This document shows positions 26,211 to 40,459 of a stretch of 64,000 nucleotides of DNA, in pieces. Made by a program: the position numbers and the translations under genes. Numbering within the stretch: position 1 is the stretch's first letter; every line of letters begins with the position of its first letter. The notes under the pieces were generated by a model, which saw nothing but the letters and a program-made list of their open reading frames with translations, was not told the DNA's origin and did not search any database. The stretch is from an uncultured Desulfobacteraceae bacterium (lineage in GTDB: Bacteria; Desulfobacterota; Syntrophobacteria; BM002), in assembly GCA_964346905.1 (NCBI GenBank), contig CAYFXH010000001.1, positions 1,280 to 65,279 on the forward strand. Reading direction: 5' to 3'.

Positions 26211-27083
26211 CTAATAAACATCCAGTATTGAAGCATGTCTCAGCACTTCGTCCGTTGCATGCTTAAGATCAGACATGCACATCACGTTCTTGAGGGCAAT
26301 TGCAGCGTATCTCGAGAAGGAGTTCAGCAGCTTTAGATTATCCAGGGTAAACCGGTTCCCTTTTCGATTGCTTAAATTCAACACTCCAAAACAATTTCCC
26401 TGATATTTGAAGGGGACGCATATCAGAGACCCGATCTCTAACGAACCGACCTTGTAGCGCGAGTCTGTTAGGACATCATTGACGAGTTCGGCTTTACCGG
26501 TCCCTATGACATCGCCGGCAACTCCTTCACCAACTGCGAGGTCTAATCTCTTCTGTGCTTTCTCACCGAAGGCAGCCCTGATGTATAGTTGATCGTTCTC
26601 CTCTTCAACAAGCATGATCGAACCGTTTTCTGCAGTTACAACGTTTTCTTTGGCTTCTTCCAGGATAAAACTGCAAGTCTCTTCTAAATCCAGAGTGCCG
26701 CAAAGTATGTTCAGTTTTTTCTTCTTCAGCTCGGCAAAATCCTTACTAAGCCGTCTTATTGTGCCACTCATGGTTTCAATTACTTTTAGAACCACCGTCG
26801 GGTCCTTCCAGATTGTCGAAAACAGTTTCTTCTTGTCGATACTCAAAACCCTCGTATCACCCTCGGCCGTGGCGGATGCGGATCGCGGCAACTTGTCGAA
26901 CAGAGCCATTTCTCCAAATATATCTCCGCTTTGAAGCGTGACCATGGTGATATCTCCAGAAGAATAGTTTTTCGATATTCTTACCTTTCCCGACTGGATT
27001 ACATACATTACATCGCCCTTTTCACCCTCTCTAAAAATAATCTCACCATCGGAATACAGCCTGCCAAGTTCACCTTCTCTCAT
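26211..27083 (-). CDS. Cyclic-nucleotide-binding domain protein with C-terminal GAF domain
   Basis: Start taken at Met16 of ORF 26211..27128 (AAGGAGGTG RBS 7 nt upstream). cNMP motif GEIIFREGEKGDVMYVIQSGKVRI...GDIFGEMALFD...RSASATAEGD; C-terminal ~150 aa GAF-like (VGEGVAGDVIGTGKAELVNDV). Confidence 0.7.
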   Translation of the reverse strand: MREGELGRLYSDGEIIFREGEKGDVMYVIQSGKVRISKNYSSGDITMVTLQSGDIFGEMALFDKLPRSASATAEGDTRVLSIDKKKLFSTIWKDPTVVLKVIETMSGTIRRLSKDFAELKKKKLNILCGTLDLEETCSFILEEAKENVVTAENGSIMLVEEENDQLYIRAAFGEKAQKRLDLAVGEGVAGDVIGTGKAELVNDVLTDSRYKVGSLEIGSLICVPFKYQGNCFGVLNLSNRKGNRFTLDNLKLLNSFSRYAAIALKNVMCMSDLKHATDEVLRHASILDVY

Positions 27084-27088
27084 TCGCC

Positions 27089-28480
27089 TCACCTCCTTCT
27101 TATCAGTGTTCTCGCGAACGCCCTCCATAGATCAAACCGCATCGGCAAGCTAATAGCTGTTCCGAAAATATTCTTGAAGCGTTCGTTTCCCGTGAACATG
27201 TTCCACAAGACTGAACTCAATCTTTTGCGATCCTTAGGATCGCTCTGTTCTTCCCGAACAATTTGTAGCATCCATCTCGTAAGCAGTCCGTAATTCTTGT
27301 ACAGATCGGCAAGGAAATATAGGTAAGTCCCGAAATAGTTGTCCACAATAATGTTTTTGTAGACTGGATAGTAATGTTCCTGAAAGTCCTGCTTGCTCAC
27401 CCCGTGAAGAACCGCCGTGTTTGCTGCAGCTTTTCCCATGATGTAGGCGGCTCCAAGACCATCTTTAAAAAGGCGCGTCGACCCGGCATCACCACACATG
27501 ACCACCCTGTCCGTAAACGGTATTTTGGGGGCTTTGATATTCATCTTAGGCAGACAGCGACAACCAAACTTGTAGCTCACTGACTTCGGCAGGACTTCTT
27601 TCACCACCGGGTAGTCAAGAAAGTCTGTTATTGTATTGACATTCAAATCATGCCCCAGAATGCATAGGGTGAGATATGTGACTTTGGGAACTATGGCCGC
27701 GAATTTCAGATTCTTTATCGGCAGGAGAAAGATGTGAATGGAATTGCCAAAATGCTCAGTGATAATTTCTTCGTCGAAGCTCAATTCAGCAATAGCCGCC
27801 TTGATAGTCCGAGGCTCTTCATACCCGAATCCTATATCCTGAAAAATGCCCGACTTGCCACTGTTTACCCCCACGGCCCCGACAACAAGGTCAGCTTGCT
27901 CTTTCCTCCCGCCCTGGGAAAACAAAATCGGCTTGCCATTCTTGTATTCAATTCCTTGAATCTTGAGAGGGATGTGTGCTGCCCCCTCCTTTACAGCCTG
28001 ACCCAGAAGAAAATCATCGAAACTCTCCTTGTCTTCCCCGATAATACCCTTTGGTCCGCCTCCCCTATAAACTGCGGCTATGGTGTTTTCAAAAGATGGA
28101 GTAGCAATAGAAACGCTTCCCTTCGTGGTATGGAGTTGATAGGAATTAATACCCTTCCACACGACCGAATCCGGCAAGTTGATCCCCTCAACTGCAAGCG
28201 TCTGGACGAGCAGTTCGGATATTATGCCTGCGCATTTATTACAGCCCGCAGGGCCATCCTTGGTGAAGTTCTTGGGATCATAGATGGTAATATTGAGTTT
28301 CTTGTCGAGCATCTTGGCCAGTTTCAGGGCAAAGATACTGAAGAAGGACCCCGTCGGCCCGCCCCCTACAACAGCAATCCTCGAGCCGTCCTCCAGGGCA
28401 TAGGGACCACTTTCGGCTAGAGCCTGCTTGGCCACGTAAGCTGCAAAATCAGATTTTGAGTGATCCTGGCGCGATAACAT
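27089..28480 (-). CDS. FAD-dependent oxidoreductase (geranylgeranyl-reductase-like flavoprotein family)
   Basis: Dinucleotide-binding motif RIAVVGGGPTGSFFS near N-terminus; ORF track extends to 28555 (GTG), start uncertain. Confidence 0.55.
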   Translation of the reverse strand: MLSRQDHSKSDFAAYVAKQALAESGPYALEDGSRIAVVGGGPTGSFFSIFALKLAKMLDKKLNITIYDPKNFTKDGPAGCNKCAGIISELLVQTLAVEGINLPDSVVWKGINSYQLHTTKGSVSIATPSFENTIAAVYRGGGPKGIIGEDKESFDDFLLGQAVKEGAAHIPLKIQGIEYKNGKPILFSQGGRKEQADLVVGAVGVNSGKSGIFQDIGFGYEEPRTIKAAIAELSFDEEIITEHFGNSIHIFLLPIKNLKFAAIVPKVTYLTLCILGHDLNVNTITDFLDYPVVKEVLPKSVSYKFGCRCLPKMNIKAPKIPFTDRVVMCGDAGSTRLFKDGLGAAYIMGKAAANTAVLHGVSKQDFQEHYYPVYKNIIVDNYFGTYLYFLADLYKNYGLLTRWMLQIVREEQSDPKDRKRLSSVLWNMFTGNERFKNIFGTAISLPMRFDLWRAFARTLIRRR

Positions 28481-28749
28481 AAACTCGGTTAAAATACGAT
28501 GAAGACACAAAAATTTTATAATAGGATAGAAAACTCTCGGTTTGAAGTTTACCACAATGTGCCATGTCCGTCAAGCTAGATGCATGCCAGGAGTTACCCT
28601 GAAAGTAACCGGTTTATTGCAAGCTCGTCCCTAAATTTTTACAATAAAATTTGCCCATAAACAAAGAATATGATCGCGCGAAGAATTACTTTTCACAATT
28701 TTTTGCTGATATAGCTAGGATGCTTTTGAGCTTGAGTGGAGGTGTTCGA

Positions 28750-31556: not shown

Positions 31557-32024
31557 TCAAATTTCTTCCATCGCTTCGTATGCGCCCTTTAGCCTGTCTC
31601 GAAGTAAGAAGCAGAGTCTTTCCAAGATAGTAAATCCAAGCTCATTGTTATCAAGCATCATCTGTCTGAGGTCCGGACCCTTAATGACCAAGACTCTTGT
31701 TGGTTTTTGACAGACGGCCGAGGACATGAGGGTATGCTTTTCATTGAGAAGTGTGGACCAGCAGCCAAAAACCCTTCCTTTCCTGATCATTCCTATAAAG
31801 ACACTTCCCGTGCGCATGCCCAGATCCACAGATCTTTCCAAAAAGACATGGCCTTCAGCAACGAGATAGATCTGATCTCCCGAATCACCTTGACGAAAAA
31901 TGTGATCGCCGGTGGCATAGGCTTCCATCCGAGACAGATTTGTGATTTTCTCAATGTTATCTTTGTGAAACCCCTTGAAAAATTCACAGCTTTCTAAGAG
32001 ACGGATAATCTCTGAACGATCCAT
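31557..32024 (-). CDS. Stand-alone cyclic-nucleotide-binding domain protein
   Basis: 155 aa; FFKGFHKDNIEKI...GDHIFRQGDSGDQIYLVAEGHVFL...RTGSVFIGMI cNMP-binding fold without an output domain. Confidence 0.65.
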   Translation of the reverse strand: MDRSEIIRLLESCEFFKGFHKDNIEKITNLSRMEAYATGDHIFRQGDSGDQIYLVAEGHVFLERSVDLGMRTGSVFIGMIRKGRVFGCWSTLLNEKHTLMSSAVCQKPTRVLVIKGPDLRQMMLDNNELGFTILERLCFLLRDRLKGAYEAMEEI

Positions 32025-32527
32025 GAGCGATCCTTTCGATTTCTATGGGATGTATGCTGGAGCATATCGCGTATAAATGCTGGGTTTACTTGTGTTGTTT
32101 TGCTTCCCTTCTCACATCTTCATGTAAAAAGATAGACCTAACTCTCCCGGTGGGTGACACCTTTGCCTGTTTCAATATGTATTTCCCTTGCTGAGTCGGA
32201 TGCACGTCACCATGGAAGCTGCCCGCACAGAATGGACCGCAATTCATGGTCGCGTCGACTGATTATTGAGAGCAGTTCTTAGACCAGGATATACTCGATT
32301 CAAAAAGTCCGTCAATCCGAAAAACCACCACCTGAGTTTGCATCCAGAGGAGGAGGGGACCAGCGTAGGATACTCAACGCTCAAAAGACAATATTGGTAG
32401 ACGTTAGAATGGCAAAAAAGGTTTTGTATAAATCCTACTTGAATAGTGGGAAAATAGGGTTATGATAATAGCTGGGAATTTCAGGACCAAGACATTTCCC
32501 TCTAAAATGAATAGAGGAGGTTTTACC

Positions 32528-32656
32528 ATGGAAAAAGATGTGACCCTAAGCTGTCCCGATGGCTATGAATTGACCTGTATGAGGGACCGCAAGTCAGATA
32601 AGTGTTGCTACTGTTGCGTGAGCATAGTTTCACCCATACGGAAGTCCTCGACTTAG
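32528..32656 (+). CDS. Small Cys-rich peptide (42 aa: MEKDVTLSCPDGYELTCMRDRKSDKCCYCCVSIVSPIRKSST)
   Basis: Internal Met23 of ORF 32462..32656 preceded by AGAGGAGG RBS 7 nt upstream; 7 Cys including a CCYCC run. Confidence 0.35.
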   Translation: MEKDVTLSCPDGYELTCMRDRKSDKCCYCCVSIVSPIRKSST

Positions 32657-33131
32657 TTCCCTGCTCTCCAGCAATCACCTACAGGTCTTTCGGAATAAGT
32701 CCACAACCAACCAATCCATTCTAGGCGGAGTGTTTTACTCCGCCTAGAGCCAGCCCGTACTCCAAGAATAAGGTTATCAATTTGCGTTGACCTGAGGGAG
32801 CTCAGCAACATGTCGAATCGTTTGTACGGACAAGTGGCAAACGGCAAGAGGGATGCTAAGAATTGCATGTATGCAATCGGTTAGCCAATTTTAGCCTGGG
32901 CTACATTGTTGGCTAACGACGCTGCTCCCTTCACTGTTCTCGAAAAAACACTTGAAATCGGACGAGAAGCCGTGCACTAATTGTATTTATCCAGGAAAAT
33001 TGCCAAGCATGGCCGGCGGACTACTGGCTGTTCCTCCAGGGAGTGCTCTATTGTTAGTCCTGGTGGAGTGCAGGTGTTCGCAAATGGACCACGTGCATTG
33101 CCACAAGAGAGGCGCGAAAAGGAGGTCTACC

Positions 33132-33347
33132 ATGGCGATATCAGGAAAATATGGCAAAATAGACATTCCGAAAATAGGCGAAGAGGAACCGGTATTTATC
33201 TTGCGGGCCCAGGACAGGCTTGCTGATGGGATCATCGAAATATACAAAGTCATAACCTCTATGCACGGGTCTGGACTTGGTGAAGAGCTCGACAAGGAGA
33301 TAGATCGTTTCCGCAGCTGGAGCGGCCAGAAGAAGATGCCAGATTAA
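33132..33347 (+). CDS. Hypothetical small protein (71 aa)
   Basis: Internal Met of ORF 32952..33347 with AAGGAGG RBS 6 nt upstream; no recognisable domain. Confidence 0.35.
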   Translation: MAISGKYGKIDIPKIGEEEPVFILRAQDRLADGIIEIYKVITSMHGSGLGEELDKEIDRFRSWSGQKKMPD

Positions 33348-38499: not shown

Positions 38500-39195
38500 T
38501 TACCAACCTATTACCACTCGGTGAAAACCTTCCGCCAGTTCAAAATCCTCCCCTTCAGCCATCTCCCTGCACCGCTCTCTCAGCCAATCTTCAGGGTCCG
38601 GATTGGGGAATCCCTGTACCTGGCTCTGGTGGCAACGTAGGGCCGCAATTTTAAGATCAAAGGTATCGGTGATGTCCGAGCGATAGTTAATGTCTTCCGC
38701 CGCCCAGAATAAGATCTCATCTACATTGTGAGGCTCCAAACCTTCCTCTAACAAATCAGGGTAGGCAAGATGATCCCGAGAGTACGGGAAAACTGCATCG
38801 AGAGTAACCTGCCCGGCAATGCGATGGTCGCGATGCCAGAGGTAACGACGGTAGGGATCCGAGGTCACCACGATCCTGGGCTGGTACATGCGTATAAAGC
38901 GAACGATCTGCTTACGAAATTCCGGCGTGTCTTCCAACTCCTGATCCGGGTATCCCAGGAATATTACTTCTCGGACCCCAAGGATCTTGGCCGCAGCCTG
39001 TTGCTCCTTTTTTCTGATTTCGGCCAATTGTTCAGGTTTGAGGCTCCGGTCGCTGGTTCCCTTGTCGCCATTGGTGCAGACAACGTAGACAACCTGCTTT
39101 CCTTCTCTGGTCCAGCGCGCTACTGTTCCTGCCACCCCGAATTCGGCGTCATCCGGATGAGCTGTTACCACCAGTACGTCCGTTGCTTTCGTCAC
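38500..39195 (-). CDS. PIG-L/LmbE-family N-acetylglucosaminyl deacetylase (MshB/BshB-like)
   Basis: Start chosen at GTG (Val71 of ORF 38500..39405) with AGGAGG RBS 6 nt upstream, giving 232 aa; signature VLVVTAHPDDAEFGVAGT and downstream His/Asp. Confidence 0.75.
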   Translation of the reverse strand: MTKATDVLVVTAHPDDAEFGVAGTVARWTREGKQVVYVVCTNGDKGTSDRSLKPEQLAEIRKKEQQAAAKILGVREVIFLGYPDQELEDTPEFRKQIVRFIRMYQPRIVVTSDPYRRYLWHRDHRIAGQVTLDAVFPYSRDHLAYPDLLEEGLEPHNVDEILFWAAEDINYRSDITDTFDLKIAALRCHQSQVQGFPNPDPEDWLRERCREMAEGEDFELAEGFHRVVIGW

Positions 39196-39250
39196 AACGA
39201 ACCTCCTAAAAAGTCGAGACTCGAGTAGTTCAATGAAATACCGAATGATG

Positions 39251-40459
39251 TTACCTGAGTATGGCTGTGTATTCTTCCAGCATAGCGGACGCCACATTTG
39301 CCCAGCTAAATTGGAGGACCGACGCGCGAATTGCTTCAGCGGATAGTCCGTTGGAGTTCGAGATAAAAGCTTCGATACCGTTTGCCAGTAAACGGGGAGA
39401 ACCATTGGTCACCAGATGTCCTGTCTCACCTTGGCGGAGGATGCTCTCCATAGCCCCCACCTTCGTTGCCACCACCGGTGTGCCAGAGGCGAGCGATTCC
39501 AAGGCCACCAGCCCAAAGCTCTCGTAGTAAGAGGGCACAACCAAGACATCTGCGGCATTGTAGTACGGCGGCAGGTTATCCTGTTCGATCCTTCCCACAA
39601 AGGTCACGGAATCCTGAATACCCAACTTCCAGGATAATCTTTGGAGGTTTTGCGACTCCGGTGTATGATGGCCATCGCCACCGACAATTACCAGTCGAAG
39701 CCTTTGATGATTCAGAAGGCGGGCCACGGCCTCAAGCAATCGGTCTATTCCCTTCAATGGCGCAAATCTGCCCACGAACAACACAATCGACTCATCCTCC
39801 GCAAAACCCAACTGCTCTCGCGCCCTCGCTTTGTCCCATGGGCGGAAAAGATCCAGGTTGACACCACACGGTACAACGCCAATTGTCGCAGAGGACGCCC
39901 CATAGTGTTGCATTAGATGGTCTCTTTCTCTGTGGGTGGCGACGAGAATGCGGTTACAATTATGTGCCAAATGCTGTTCGGTGGCTGTACGCAGTTCGGG
40001 TTCTTTCTCCGCACCAACTGTACTGTTCTTTACCGCGCCAACAGTATGGAACATGAAAAGATGAGGGACTTCCCAGCGTTCATGGGCCCATTTCCCCACC
40101 CGACCGGAGAGCCAGTAGTTACTATGTACAAGGTCATAGTCCAACGACTCGTATGTTCTAAATCTTTCCAGCTCCCGGAAAAAATCAGGCAGATAGGGAT
40201 AAAGTGCCAATTTGTTCATATCACCGTTGTTCCCGGCTTTTAGATGAATGAGTCGGACGTTCTCACATAGTTCAACTCTCTGAGTATCAGCTGCATTACT
40301 GAGACGCGTATAAATGTCGACCAAATGGCCGCGGTTTCCCAGCTCCCGGGCAAGCTCACGGACATAGACACTCATGCCTCCGGTGTCTTTTGTCCCTAAT
40401 TCTCCTAGCGGACTTGAATGAACGCTCAACATTGCAATTCTTAACTGTTCTGCTTCCAC
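39251..40459 (-). CDS. GT4 glycosyltransferase of the MshA/BshA (N-acetylglucosaminyl-transferase) family
   Basis: 402 aa; IAMLSVHSSPLGELGTKDTGGMSVYV, DLVHSNYWLSG, HTVGAVKNS, PSYYESFGLVALESLASGTPVVA align block-for-block with Corynebacterium MshA (from memory). Confidence 0.75.
   Translation of the reverse strand: MEAEQLRIAMLSVHSSPLGELGTKDTGGMSVYVRELARELGNRGHLVDIYTRLSNAADTQRVELCENVRLIHLKAGNNGDMNKLALYPYLPDFFRELERFRTYESLDYDLVHSNYWLSGRVGKWAHERWEVPHLFMFHTVGAVKNSTVGAEKEPELRTATEQHLAHNCNRILVATHRERDHLMQHYGASSATIGVVPCGVNLDLFRPWDKARAREQLGFAEDESIVLFVGRFAPLKGIDRLLEAVARLLNHQRLRLVIVGGDGHHTPESQNLQRLSWKLGIQDSVTFVGRIEQDNLPPYYNAADVLVVPSYYESFGLVALESLASGTPVVATKVGAMESILRQGETGHLVTNGSPRLLANGIEAFISNSNGLSAEAIRASVLQFSWANVASAMLEEYTAILR

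Follow-up and report, generated by a model that had tools for sequence, protein, structure and literature searches.

Within a 64,000-nucleotide (nt) stretch of DNA from an uncultured Desulfobacteraceae bacterium (contig CAYFXH010000001.1; the window refers to this whole stretch), we analyzed a small gene on the forward strand whose cysteine-rich product of 42 amino acids (aa) reads MEKDVTLSCPDGYELTCMRDRKSDKCCYCCVSIVSPIRKSST. The original prediction, made from the DNA letters, had described a 42-aa Cys-rich open reading frame (ORF) with a CCYCC motif behind a strong ribosome-binding site, and its coordinates and translation proved exact (Table 1). The six cysteines of the window peptide lie at positions 9, 17, 26, 27, 29 and 30 (about 14% of the residues), and the run that reads CCYCC here is CCCCC in most relatives. 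The ribosome-binding site was likewise present as described, and (A/G)GGAGG is found at an equal distance from the ATG in all of the homologous loci. The gene occupies a ~1.1 kb stretch (32025-33131) between a gene for a cyclic nucleotide monophosphate (cNMP)-binding protein and an ORF encoding a 71-aa protein. Consistent with the earlier statement that the region holds no other credible gene, no other ORF in this stretch is conserved or matches a family.

A 42-codon ORF with a Shine-Dalgarno (SD) sequence could arise by chance. A word-indexed protein search detected three clusters that are 73-78% identical and have CCCCC in place of CCYCC, while a full HMMER scan together with a profile search detected about 42 clusters. 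Two more loci were found in a scan of genomes and 27 more in a scan of metagenomes. All of the homologs come from Syntrophobacteria or "Deltaproteobacteria" metagenome-assembled genomes (MAGs) and from sediment or soil metagenomes, the named sources being a Syntrophobacterales MAG, a 'Syntrophobacteria bacterium' and a 'Deltaproteobacteria' soil MAG. Wherever the source names the homolog, the name is 'hypothetical protein'. The peptide founds a family without a name, composed of proteins of 41-61 aa and restricted to Syntrophobacteria-like Desulfobacterota. Homologs at 38-88% identity retain the frame and the cysteines, such that both the reading frame and the Cys spacing, which the original prediction had singled out for checking, are conserved in relatives. 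In an alignment of 39 sequences, L7, C9, Y13, C27 and C30 are invariant and P10, G12, L15 and C29 are nearly so; C17 and C26 are usually kept, although some members have other residues there, and C, Y, F or W is found at position 28. Conservation spans the whole of the first 36 residues, while the C-terminal tails are variable.

The pattern of substitutions is that of a protein under constraint. Between the window and its relatives there are 8 differences at codon position 1, 3-4 at position 2 and 12-14 at position 3, the second position thus having the fewest and the third the most. Across codons 7-17 (LSCPDGYELAC), one locus (L012) differs from the other relatives at nine synonymous and no non-synonymous sites, and the window differs from the relatives by a single residue, T16. 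For pairs diverged by more than a few percent, the ratio of non-synonymous to synonymous substitution rates (dN/dS, Nei-Gojobori) was 0.07-0.26 with dS at or near saturation, which indicates purifying selection on the protein. Given this ratio and the retention of frame and cysteines in the homologs, the 42-aa ORF is not a chance frame. It is almost certain that 32528..32656 is a real protein-coding gene of the stand-alone type.

Table 1. Features in and around the Cys-rich peptide gene (window coordinates; aa, amino acids; UTR, untranslated region)
Feature	Position	Strand	Description
42-aa Cys-rich protein coding sequence	32528..32656	+	ATG at 32528, stop TAG at 32654-32656
Shine-Dalgarno AGAGGAGG	32513..32520	+	Read from sequence, 7 nt before ATG
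Promoter-like site	32439..32466	+	TTGAAT, 16-nt spacer, TATGAT; -10 at 32461-32466 (promoter scan and alignment)
5´ UTR hairpin	32499..32517	+	CCUCUA (32499-32504) and UAGAGG (32512-32517) form the stem, which includes part of the SD
3´ UTR	32657..32719	+	58-70% identity against 48-54% background; includes CAGGTCTTTCGGA
Strong stem-loop	32720..32748	+	TCTAGGCGGAGT, loop, ACTCCGCCTAGA; about 12-14 bp, -22.8 kcal/mol, without U-tail
Public gene call P0001	32462..32656	+	64-aa form, start 32462
Antisense ORF	32523..32678	-	Open in nine loci
cNMP-binding protein	31557..32024	-	Pfam cNMP_binding match; stand-alone domain, no DNA-binding domain detected
Second cNMP protein	26214..27128	-	cNMP and GAF domains
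71-aa protein	33132..33347	+	Strong ribosome-binding site (AAGGAGG)
Spacer, peptide unit to 71-aa gene	32750..33131		About 230 nt longer than in relatives
Inverted repeat in spacer	32880-32888 / 32909-32917		9 bp, GTTAGCCAA ... TTGGCTAAC
488-aa ORF	27092..28555	-	No Pfam match at E<=0.001
PIG-L family deacetylase	38503..39405	-	6 kb from the Cys-rich gene
GT4 glycosyltransferase	39254..40459	-	Beside the PIG-L gene

The public gene call for the window protein (P0001) is a 64-aa form that begins upstream of the 42-aa form. We rejected this form as over-extended, because its ATG is inside the conserved -10 box (TTATGAT) and the homologs begin with the methionine that opens the 42-aa form, downstream of the conserved SD. 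Across the family, public calls either stretch the small gene upstream to 62-92 aa (P0001, P0003, P0030, P0031 and others) or omit it, and the upstream-extended calls are start-site mis-annotations.

The features that surround the coding sequence are those of a short transcription unit. A -10 box, G(G/A)GTTATAAT or GTTATACT, precedes the ATG by 35-90 nt in every lineage examined but L018 and reads GTTATGAT in the window (32459-32466). This conserved box presumably acts as a promoter, which would give a leader of about 55 nt. Conservation against relatives begins at about 32508 and ends at about 32690-32752, with identities of 0.64-0.76 in the 5´ UTR, 0.75-0.84 in the coding sequence and 0.58-0.70 in the 3´ UTR, compared to a background of 0.46-0.54 far upstream. 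The flanking DNA is at background identity, and the -10 box, the SD and a 3´ hairpin are conserved. Together these elements point to a monocistronic mRNA of about 270-300 nt with inferred ends.

Part of the SD is covered by a 5´ UTR hairpin that is present in both the minimum free energy fold and the centroid fold of the transcript. Relatives in the window clade have CCUCC, 11 nt and then GGAGG at this site, and in L027, L029 and L032 both sides differ together from CCUCC/GGAGG, reading CUC(A/G)C(C/A)C with GGGAGG(G). The anti-SD hairpin is absent in clades B and D. Where it is present, the predicted structure may control translation.

At the other end, the stem-loop of the window begins 64 nt after the stop codon, and a strong GC stem is found 45-75 nt after the stop in every lineage. 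The stem sequences vary by lineage (GGGCGGAGT with ACTCCGCCC; GGGCGGGGCC with GGCTCCGCCC; GAGGCCGGGTG with CACCCGGCCTC), with two compensatory base-pair changes between the window and clade A. Of 100 shuffles per lineage, at least 99 were less stable than the native hairpin in all of the lineages tested (10/10), and the clade-B hairpins carry a U-rich tail. The stem-loop is likely the 3´ end of the transcript or a terminator. We also considered a REP-like repeat and rejected this since the hairpin sequence is unique in the window, even though some relatives have Y1-transposase genes nearby. A scan of the whole window at Rfam gathering thresholds gave no RNA family match, and the fold of the entire transcript is unexceptional compared to shuffles (z = -1.36). 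Two further sequence elements were noted downstream of the coding region. A 3´ UTR block, CAGGTCTTTCGGA, is kept across the window clade and contains GGA; this block could be a protein- or RNA-binding site or the seed of a 3´ UTR-derived small RNA. The long spacer that follows the unit contains a 9-bp inverted repeat that matches nothing found here.

Upstream genes vary between lineages. In the window, the peptide gene is divergent from the cNMP-binding protein gene and is followed by the gene for the 71-aa protein. L001, L010 and L030 have a divergent Cu/Zn superoxide dismutase (Cu/Zn-SOD) gene, L005-L009 and L025 have a SOD remnant and a Y1 transposase gene, L013 and L014 have a divergent OsmC gene, and L015-L017 have a gene for a PAS protein. 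L002-L004 and L011 carry a gene for a nitroreductase-like protein upstream and, downstream, a PNPOx-like gene followed by the 71-aa protein gene, while L018 and L019 have an HNH protein gene upstream and a convergent S4 protein gene followed by Fe-SOD, two genes away. L020 has the genes for TusA and cysteine desulfurase immediately ahead on the same strand, those for Cu/Zn-SOD and DsrC close by and a convergent channel gene downstream. Six clade-B loci have a divergent gene for an Rrf2 regulator and then one for cytochrome bd subunit I, and downstream a convergent 54-aa ORF and a glycogen-synthase-like gene. Genes for a 167-aa Cys-rich protein and a TIR protein are found in clade C. The next gene is convergent in L018, L019, L020 and all of the clade-B loci. 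As the peptide gene has its own -10 box, SD and hairpin, as its neighbors vary and as the downstream gene is often convergent, we conclude that it is stand-alone.

The original prediction had placed the gene next to cNMP-binding regulators. The cNMP-binding gene does adjoin it, but neither of the two cNMP proteins termed regulators shows a helix-turn-helix domain in Pfam. The implied functional link was not borne out, since adjacency to cNMP-binding proteins is confined to the window genome and was not seen in any relative. The only recurrent same-strand neighbor of the peptide gene encodes the 71-aa protein, which is more conserved than the Cys-rich peptide (87-94% identical in relatives) and is matched by no model in Pfam or NCBIfam. 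Its family comprises at least 340 clusters from Syntrophobacteria and Desulfobacteraceae, every one of them 'hypothetical'. We rejected this protein as an obligate partner because its family is far larger than that of the peptide (at least 340 versus about 42 clusters) and because L001, L012 and other loci lack it; the association is synteny, not dependence. Searches of plasmids with the peptide and of phages with its 71-aa neighbor gave no match. Of about 13 distinct contexts, about 4-5 have genes for oxygen defense (SODs, OsmC, cytochrome bd with Rrf2) no more than two genes from the peptide gene, an excess with P of about 10^-3 by a rough binomial estimate that assumes about 4% per context and uses a post hoc count.

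Several lineage-specific features of these neighborhoods were noted. In clade B (L012, L036-L038, L042, L043, L049-L051), the Rrf2-family regulator encoded divergently from the peptide gene has a three-Cys cluster motif, and a palindrome, ATAAGA-N9-TCTTAT, adjoins the rrf2 start as a candidate operator about 150 nt upstream of the -10 box of the peptide gene. As for an operator shared between rrf2 and the peptide gene, no conserved copy of this palindrome was found at the peptide promoter in this clade. L006-L009 carry 75-aa ORFs, about 370 nt ahead of the peptide gene, that show homology to a portion of the Cu/Zn-SOD (173-175 aa) found in L001 and L010; these ORFs are beside a Y1-transposase/DnaA_C gene and resemble a truncated SOD left by rearrangement. 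The 167-aa Cys-rich protein of clade C (L021-L024, L035, L041) is conserved, is encoded 378 nt downstream on the same strand, contains CWC, CGNCG and CCSREC motifs and has no Pfam match, with the convergent TIR-domain gene beyond it.

AlphaFold2 modeled the peptide as a beta-hairpin bearing the cysteines, with strands at residues 13-19 and 26-32 (predicted local distance difference test score, pLDDT, 74). The CC(x)CC run, modeled as a strand, contains the only CxxC of the peptide. The conserved hydrophobic and aromatic residues (L7, Y13, L15, V31) suggest a folded mini-domain rather than a disordered peptide. The N-terminus has eight mostly charged residues (MEKDVTLS) before C9 and, by inspection, no signal peptide and no hydrophobic h-region. 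A lipoprotein or secreted peptide, which would need a lipobox L-[AS]-[GA]-C after a hydrophobic segment, was rejected on the same basis. Given such an N-terminus, the protein is probably cytoplasmic.

No match to a known family was found in Pfam, NCBIfam, PDB sequences or PDB folds. Pfam was scanned with the window peptide and 12 family members, and metallothionein profiles were not matched even at E<=1. For desulforedoxin and rubredoxin, there was no match in Pfam, NCBIfam or PDB sequences, and the CxxC(G) knuckles at hairpin turns are lacking. Among the members scanned, only a divergent 42-aa protein (P0017) matched the model of the HgcAB-associated protein HgcC (NCBIfam NF040962), with 14.9 bits (E 0.018) compared to a curated cut-off of 70 bits. 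HgcC identity was rejected given that this single weak match is below the cut-off and that no HgcA cap-helix motif was found in the window or any fetched locus. In large proteins, the family profile also matched Sushi/CCP repeats (at SCNDGYEL) and MucBP repeats (at LSLPDGYEL). Sushi/CCP (and EGF-like) domains share the C-x-x-G-Y-x-L hairpin motif with the peptide, while the MucBP repeats have PDGYEL without the Cys. We rejected homology, as only the short (C)-x-D-G-Y-E-L beta-turn motif is common, the resemblance extending over about 12 residues of unrelated extracellular repeat proteins. These matches nevertheless support a tight beta-turn at P-D-G-Y. Literature searches with the motif, and for Cys-rich small proteins in these taxa, returned no relevant paper.

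We tentatively favor the view that the 42-aa protein is a cytoplasmic metal- or Fe-S-thiolate protein linked to redox stress. Three functions had been proposed for the peptide at the outset: metal binding, a precursor of the RiPP type (ribosomally synthesized and post-translationally modified peptide) and a small regulatory protein. Metal binding appears the most plausible of these, because C9, C27 and C30 are invariant and C29 is nearly so, a CxxC lies within the Cys run, a hairpin is predicted and oxygen-defense or metal genes are neighbors. In addition, CCxCC has a precedent in vertebrate metallothionein, where it is part of the alpha-domain, which is proven to hold a metal-thiolate cluster. 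Under this model, the N-terminal L-S-C-P-x-G-Y-x-L turn and the C-C-(C/Y/F/W)-C-C-V strand would form a small beta-hairpin. Its thiolates (the invariant C9, C27 and C30, the near-invariant C29 and usually C17 and C26) would be the ligands of a metal ion or of a small cluster of the Fe-S or metal-thiolate type, possibly shared by the two subunits of a dimer. In a strict anaerobe, whose cytoplasm is reduced, such a protein could serve as a buffer or chaperone for metals, as a switch that responds to redox state or as a thiol sink, with a role in defense against oxygen and oxidative stress suggested by the recurrent neighbor genes. In the window clade, the anti-SD hairpin may additionally gate translation.

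A number of observations count against this assignment. A regular beta-strand puts C27/C29 and C26/C30 on opposite faces, such that a single mononuclear site built from all of the invariant cysteines is not obvious from the monomer model; as the monomer does not gather all of the invariant cysteines at one site, a dimer-bridging centre is conceivable. C17 and C26 are not strictly kept, and position 28 tolerates aromatic residues. The oxygen-defense count was made post hoc, its binomial estimate is rough, and the window itself has no oxygen-defense neighbor. Moreover, Cu/Zn-SOD is typically periplasmic, while the peptide is probably cytoplasmic. A more elaborate version of the metal-thiolate model is rather doubtful: the family might be a hitherto unrecognized class of poly-Cys beta-hairpin mini-proteins specific to syntrophic and sulfate-reducing Desulfobacterota, with an O2-labile metal or Fe-S centre held perhaps across a dimer through both faces of the CCxCC strand, and acting from its own promoter and with anti-SD gating as a dedicated effector or sensor of oxygen, reactive oxygen species or metal stress.

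The third of the proposed functions, a small regulatory protein, is possible, and a serious alternative, though one to which we give appreciably less weight, is a metal-free, thiol-based regulator or adaptor that binds a partner (an enzyme, a regulator or a membrane complex) or uses reversible disulfide or persulfide chemistry. Many bacterial proteins of less than 50 aa act by binding larger proteins. The stand-alone gene with its own promoter would suit such a role, the conserved hydrophobic face formed by L7, Y13, L15 and V31 could be an interaction surface, and in L020 the gene directly follows those for TusA and cysteine desulfurase and is near that for DsrC, all of which are sulfur-relay proteins. 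However, no partner gene is conserved alongside, the recurrent 71-aa neighbor being both far more widespread and absent in several lineages, and runs of four to five cysteines are encountered more typically at metal-thiolate sites than where proteins contact each other. We consider it unlikely, more so than a thiol regulator, that the peptide is a RiPP precursor whose cysteines would be converted to thioethers, thiazoles or the like by a maturase from another locus of the genome. The peptide is short and Cys-rich with variable C-terminal tails, and its length and Cys count recall the precursors of SCIFF-type ranthipeptides (six cysteines in forty-five residues). Unlike for these precursors, there is no adjacent radical-SAM/SPASM maturase, no NCBIfam match to SCIFF or other precursor models and a different Cys spacing, and the taxon is another one. 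No radical-SAM, YcaO, lanthipeptide-synthetase, peptidase or export gene is present within about 8 kb in the window, in agreement with the original prediction that no maturase is nearby, and no such gene stands beside the peptide gene in the about 13 different neighborhoods. The conservation throughout the first 36 residues also leaves no leader distinguishable from a hypervariable core.

Still less probable is a Cys-sensing leader or arrest peptide, on which ribosomes would stall at Cys codons when Cys-tRNA is scarce, shifting the RNA structure and switching a downstream gene. Polycysteine short ORFs are proven Cys-responsive attenuators in mycobacteria, where two or more, and typically three or more, consecutive Cys codons are the criterion (10.1101/834739). 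The four to five consecutive or nearly consecutive Cys codons of the peptide gene are of this kind and, in the window, the hairpin after the stop is followed by a gene on the same strand. Unlike the leaderless mycobacterial short ORFs, however, the mRNA has a leader, with a -10 box about 60 nt upstream of a putatively leadered start codon and an SD before the ATG. The gene is also monocistronic and not ahead of cysteine-metabolism genes: wherever the downstream gene is convergent there is nothing to attenuate, and the same-strand downstream genes vary (71-aa protein, PNPOx-like and others), with none for cysteine metabolism. The whole peptide, including its non-Cys residues, is under strong purifying selection, the Cys run is broken by Y, F or W in many members, and no alternative pairing for the hairpin arm was apparent from inspection of the sequence or from the folded transcript, though no search aimed at such pairing was made. 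The least probable alternative by a wide margin is that the conserved element is not this protein at all, but a non-coding RNA or the antisense ORF, the open 42-codon frame being an accident. UTR conservation likewise exceeds background and the antisense ORF is open in nine loci, but the substitution pattern fits the sense frame alone. As codon position 2 of the antisense ORF corresponds to sense position 3, the most variable, we rejected it as a gene and regard it as a by-product of conserved DNA. In the more distant homologs, the protein is retained in spite of changes at most synonymous sites, and the lack of an Rfam match and the unexceptional fold of the transcript likewise speak against a structured RNA. 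The dN/dS values exclude both a non-coding RNA and a chance ORF.

The closest functional analogs are the mini metal centres of the desulforedoxin/rubredoxin type in sulfate reducers and the metallothioneins, and the peptide is not a member of either group. Desulforedoxin is very small (about 36-50 aa), has a C-C pair, a beta-hairpin build and an Fe(Cys)4 centre, is also found as a domain of desulfoferrodoxin and is tied to oxygen defense. Similarly, the peptide is very small, probably cytoplasmic, from anaerobic Desulfobacterota and predicted to be a hairpin with adjacent cysteines. In contrast to desulforedoxin and rubredoxin, its spacing is C-x7-C-x8-CC(x)CC rather than CxxC...CC, with no CxxCG knuckle at the turn and no sequence or profile similarity, and its metal binding is putative. 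With the metallothioneins (bacterial SmtA/BmtA, mycobacterial MymT and the vertebrate alpha-domain), the peptide shares small size, Cys richness, a probable cytoplasmic location and CCxCC. It differs in having about 14% Cys compared to about 30% in classical metallothioneins, in its conserved aromatic and aliphatic residues and predicted regular hairpin, and in matching no metallothionein model, Metallothio_Pro included. The family is undescribed and narrow in taxonomic range, and belongs among the small Cys-rich, probably metal-binding proteins of bacteria.

Proteins of less than 50 aa are systematically missed or mis-called, as exemplified by this gene. That the gene is real and under strong constraint is established here from evolutionary evidence alone, and its unusual CC(C/Y/F/W)CC motif is found in syntrophic anaerobes that are little studied and for the most part uncultured. 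If the protein binds a metal or cluster and contributes to oxygen defense, it would be a new mini-metalloprotein in the oxidative-stress toolkit of strict anaerobes as well as a chemically synthesizable 42-residue model for metal-thiolate chemistry. If the metal or oxygen role is false, the gene would be a modest addition to the growing catalog of conserved bacterial microproteins.

Two other features of the window were noted at some distance from the gene. On one side, the reverse strand has a 488-aa ORF with no family assigned in the Pfam search (Table 1). On the other, a gene for a PIG-L family deacetylase is beside that for a GT4 glycosyltransferase, a pairing that occurs in the synthesis of low-molecular-weight thiols of the bacillithiol and mycothiol type.
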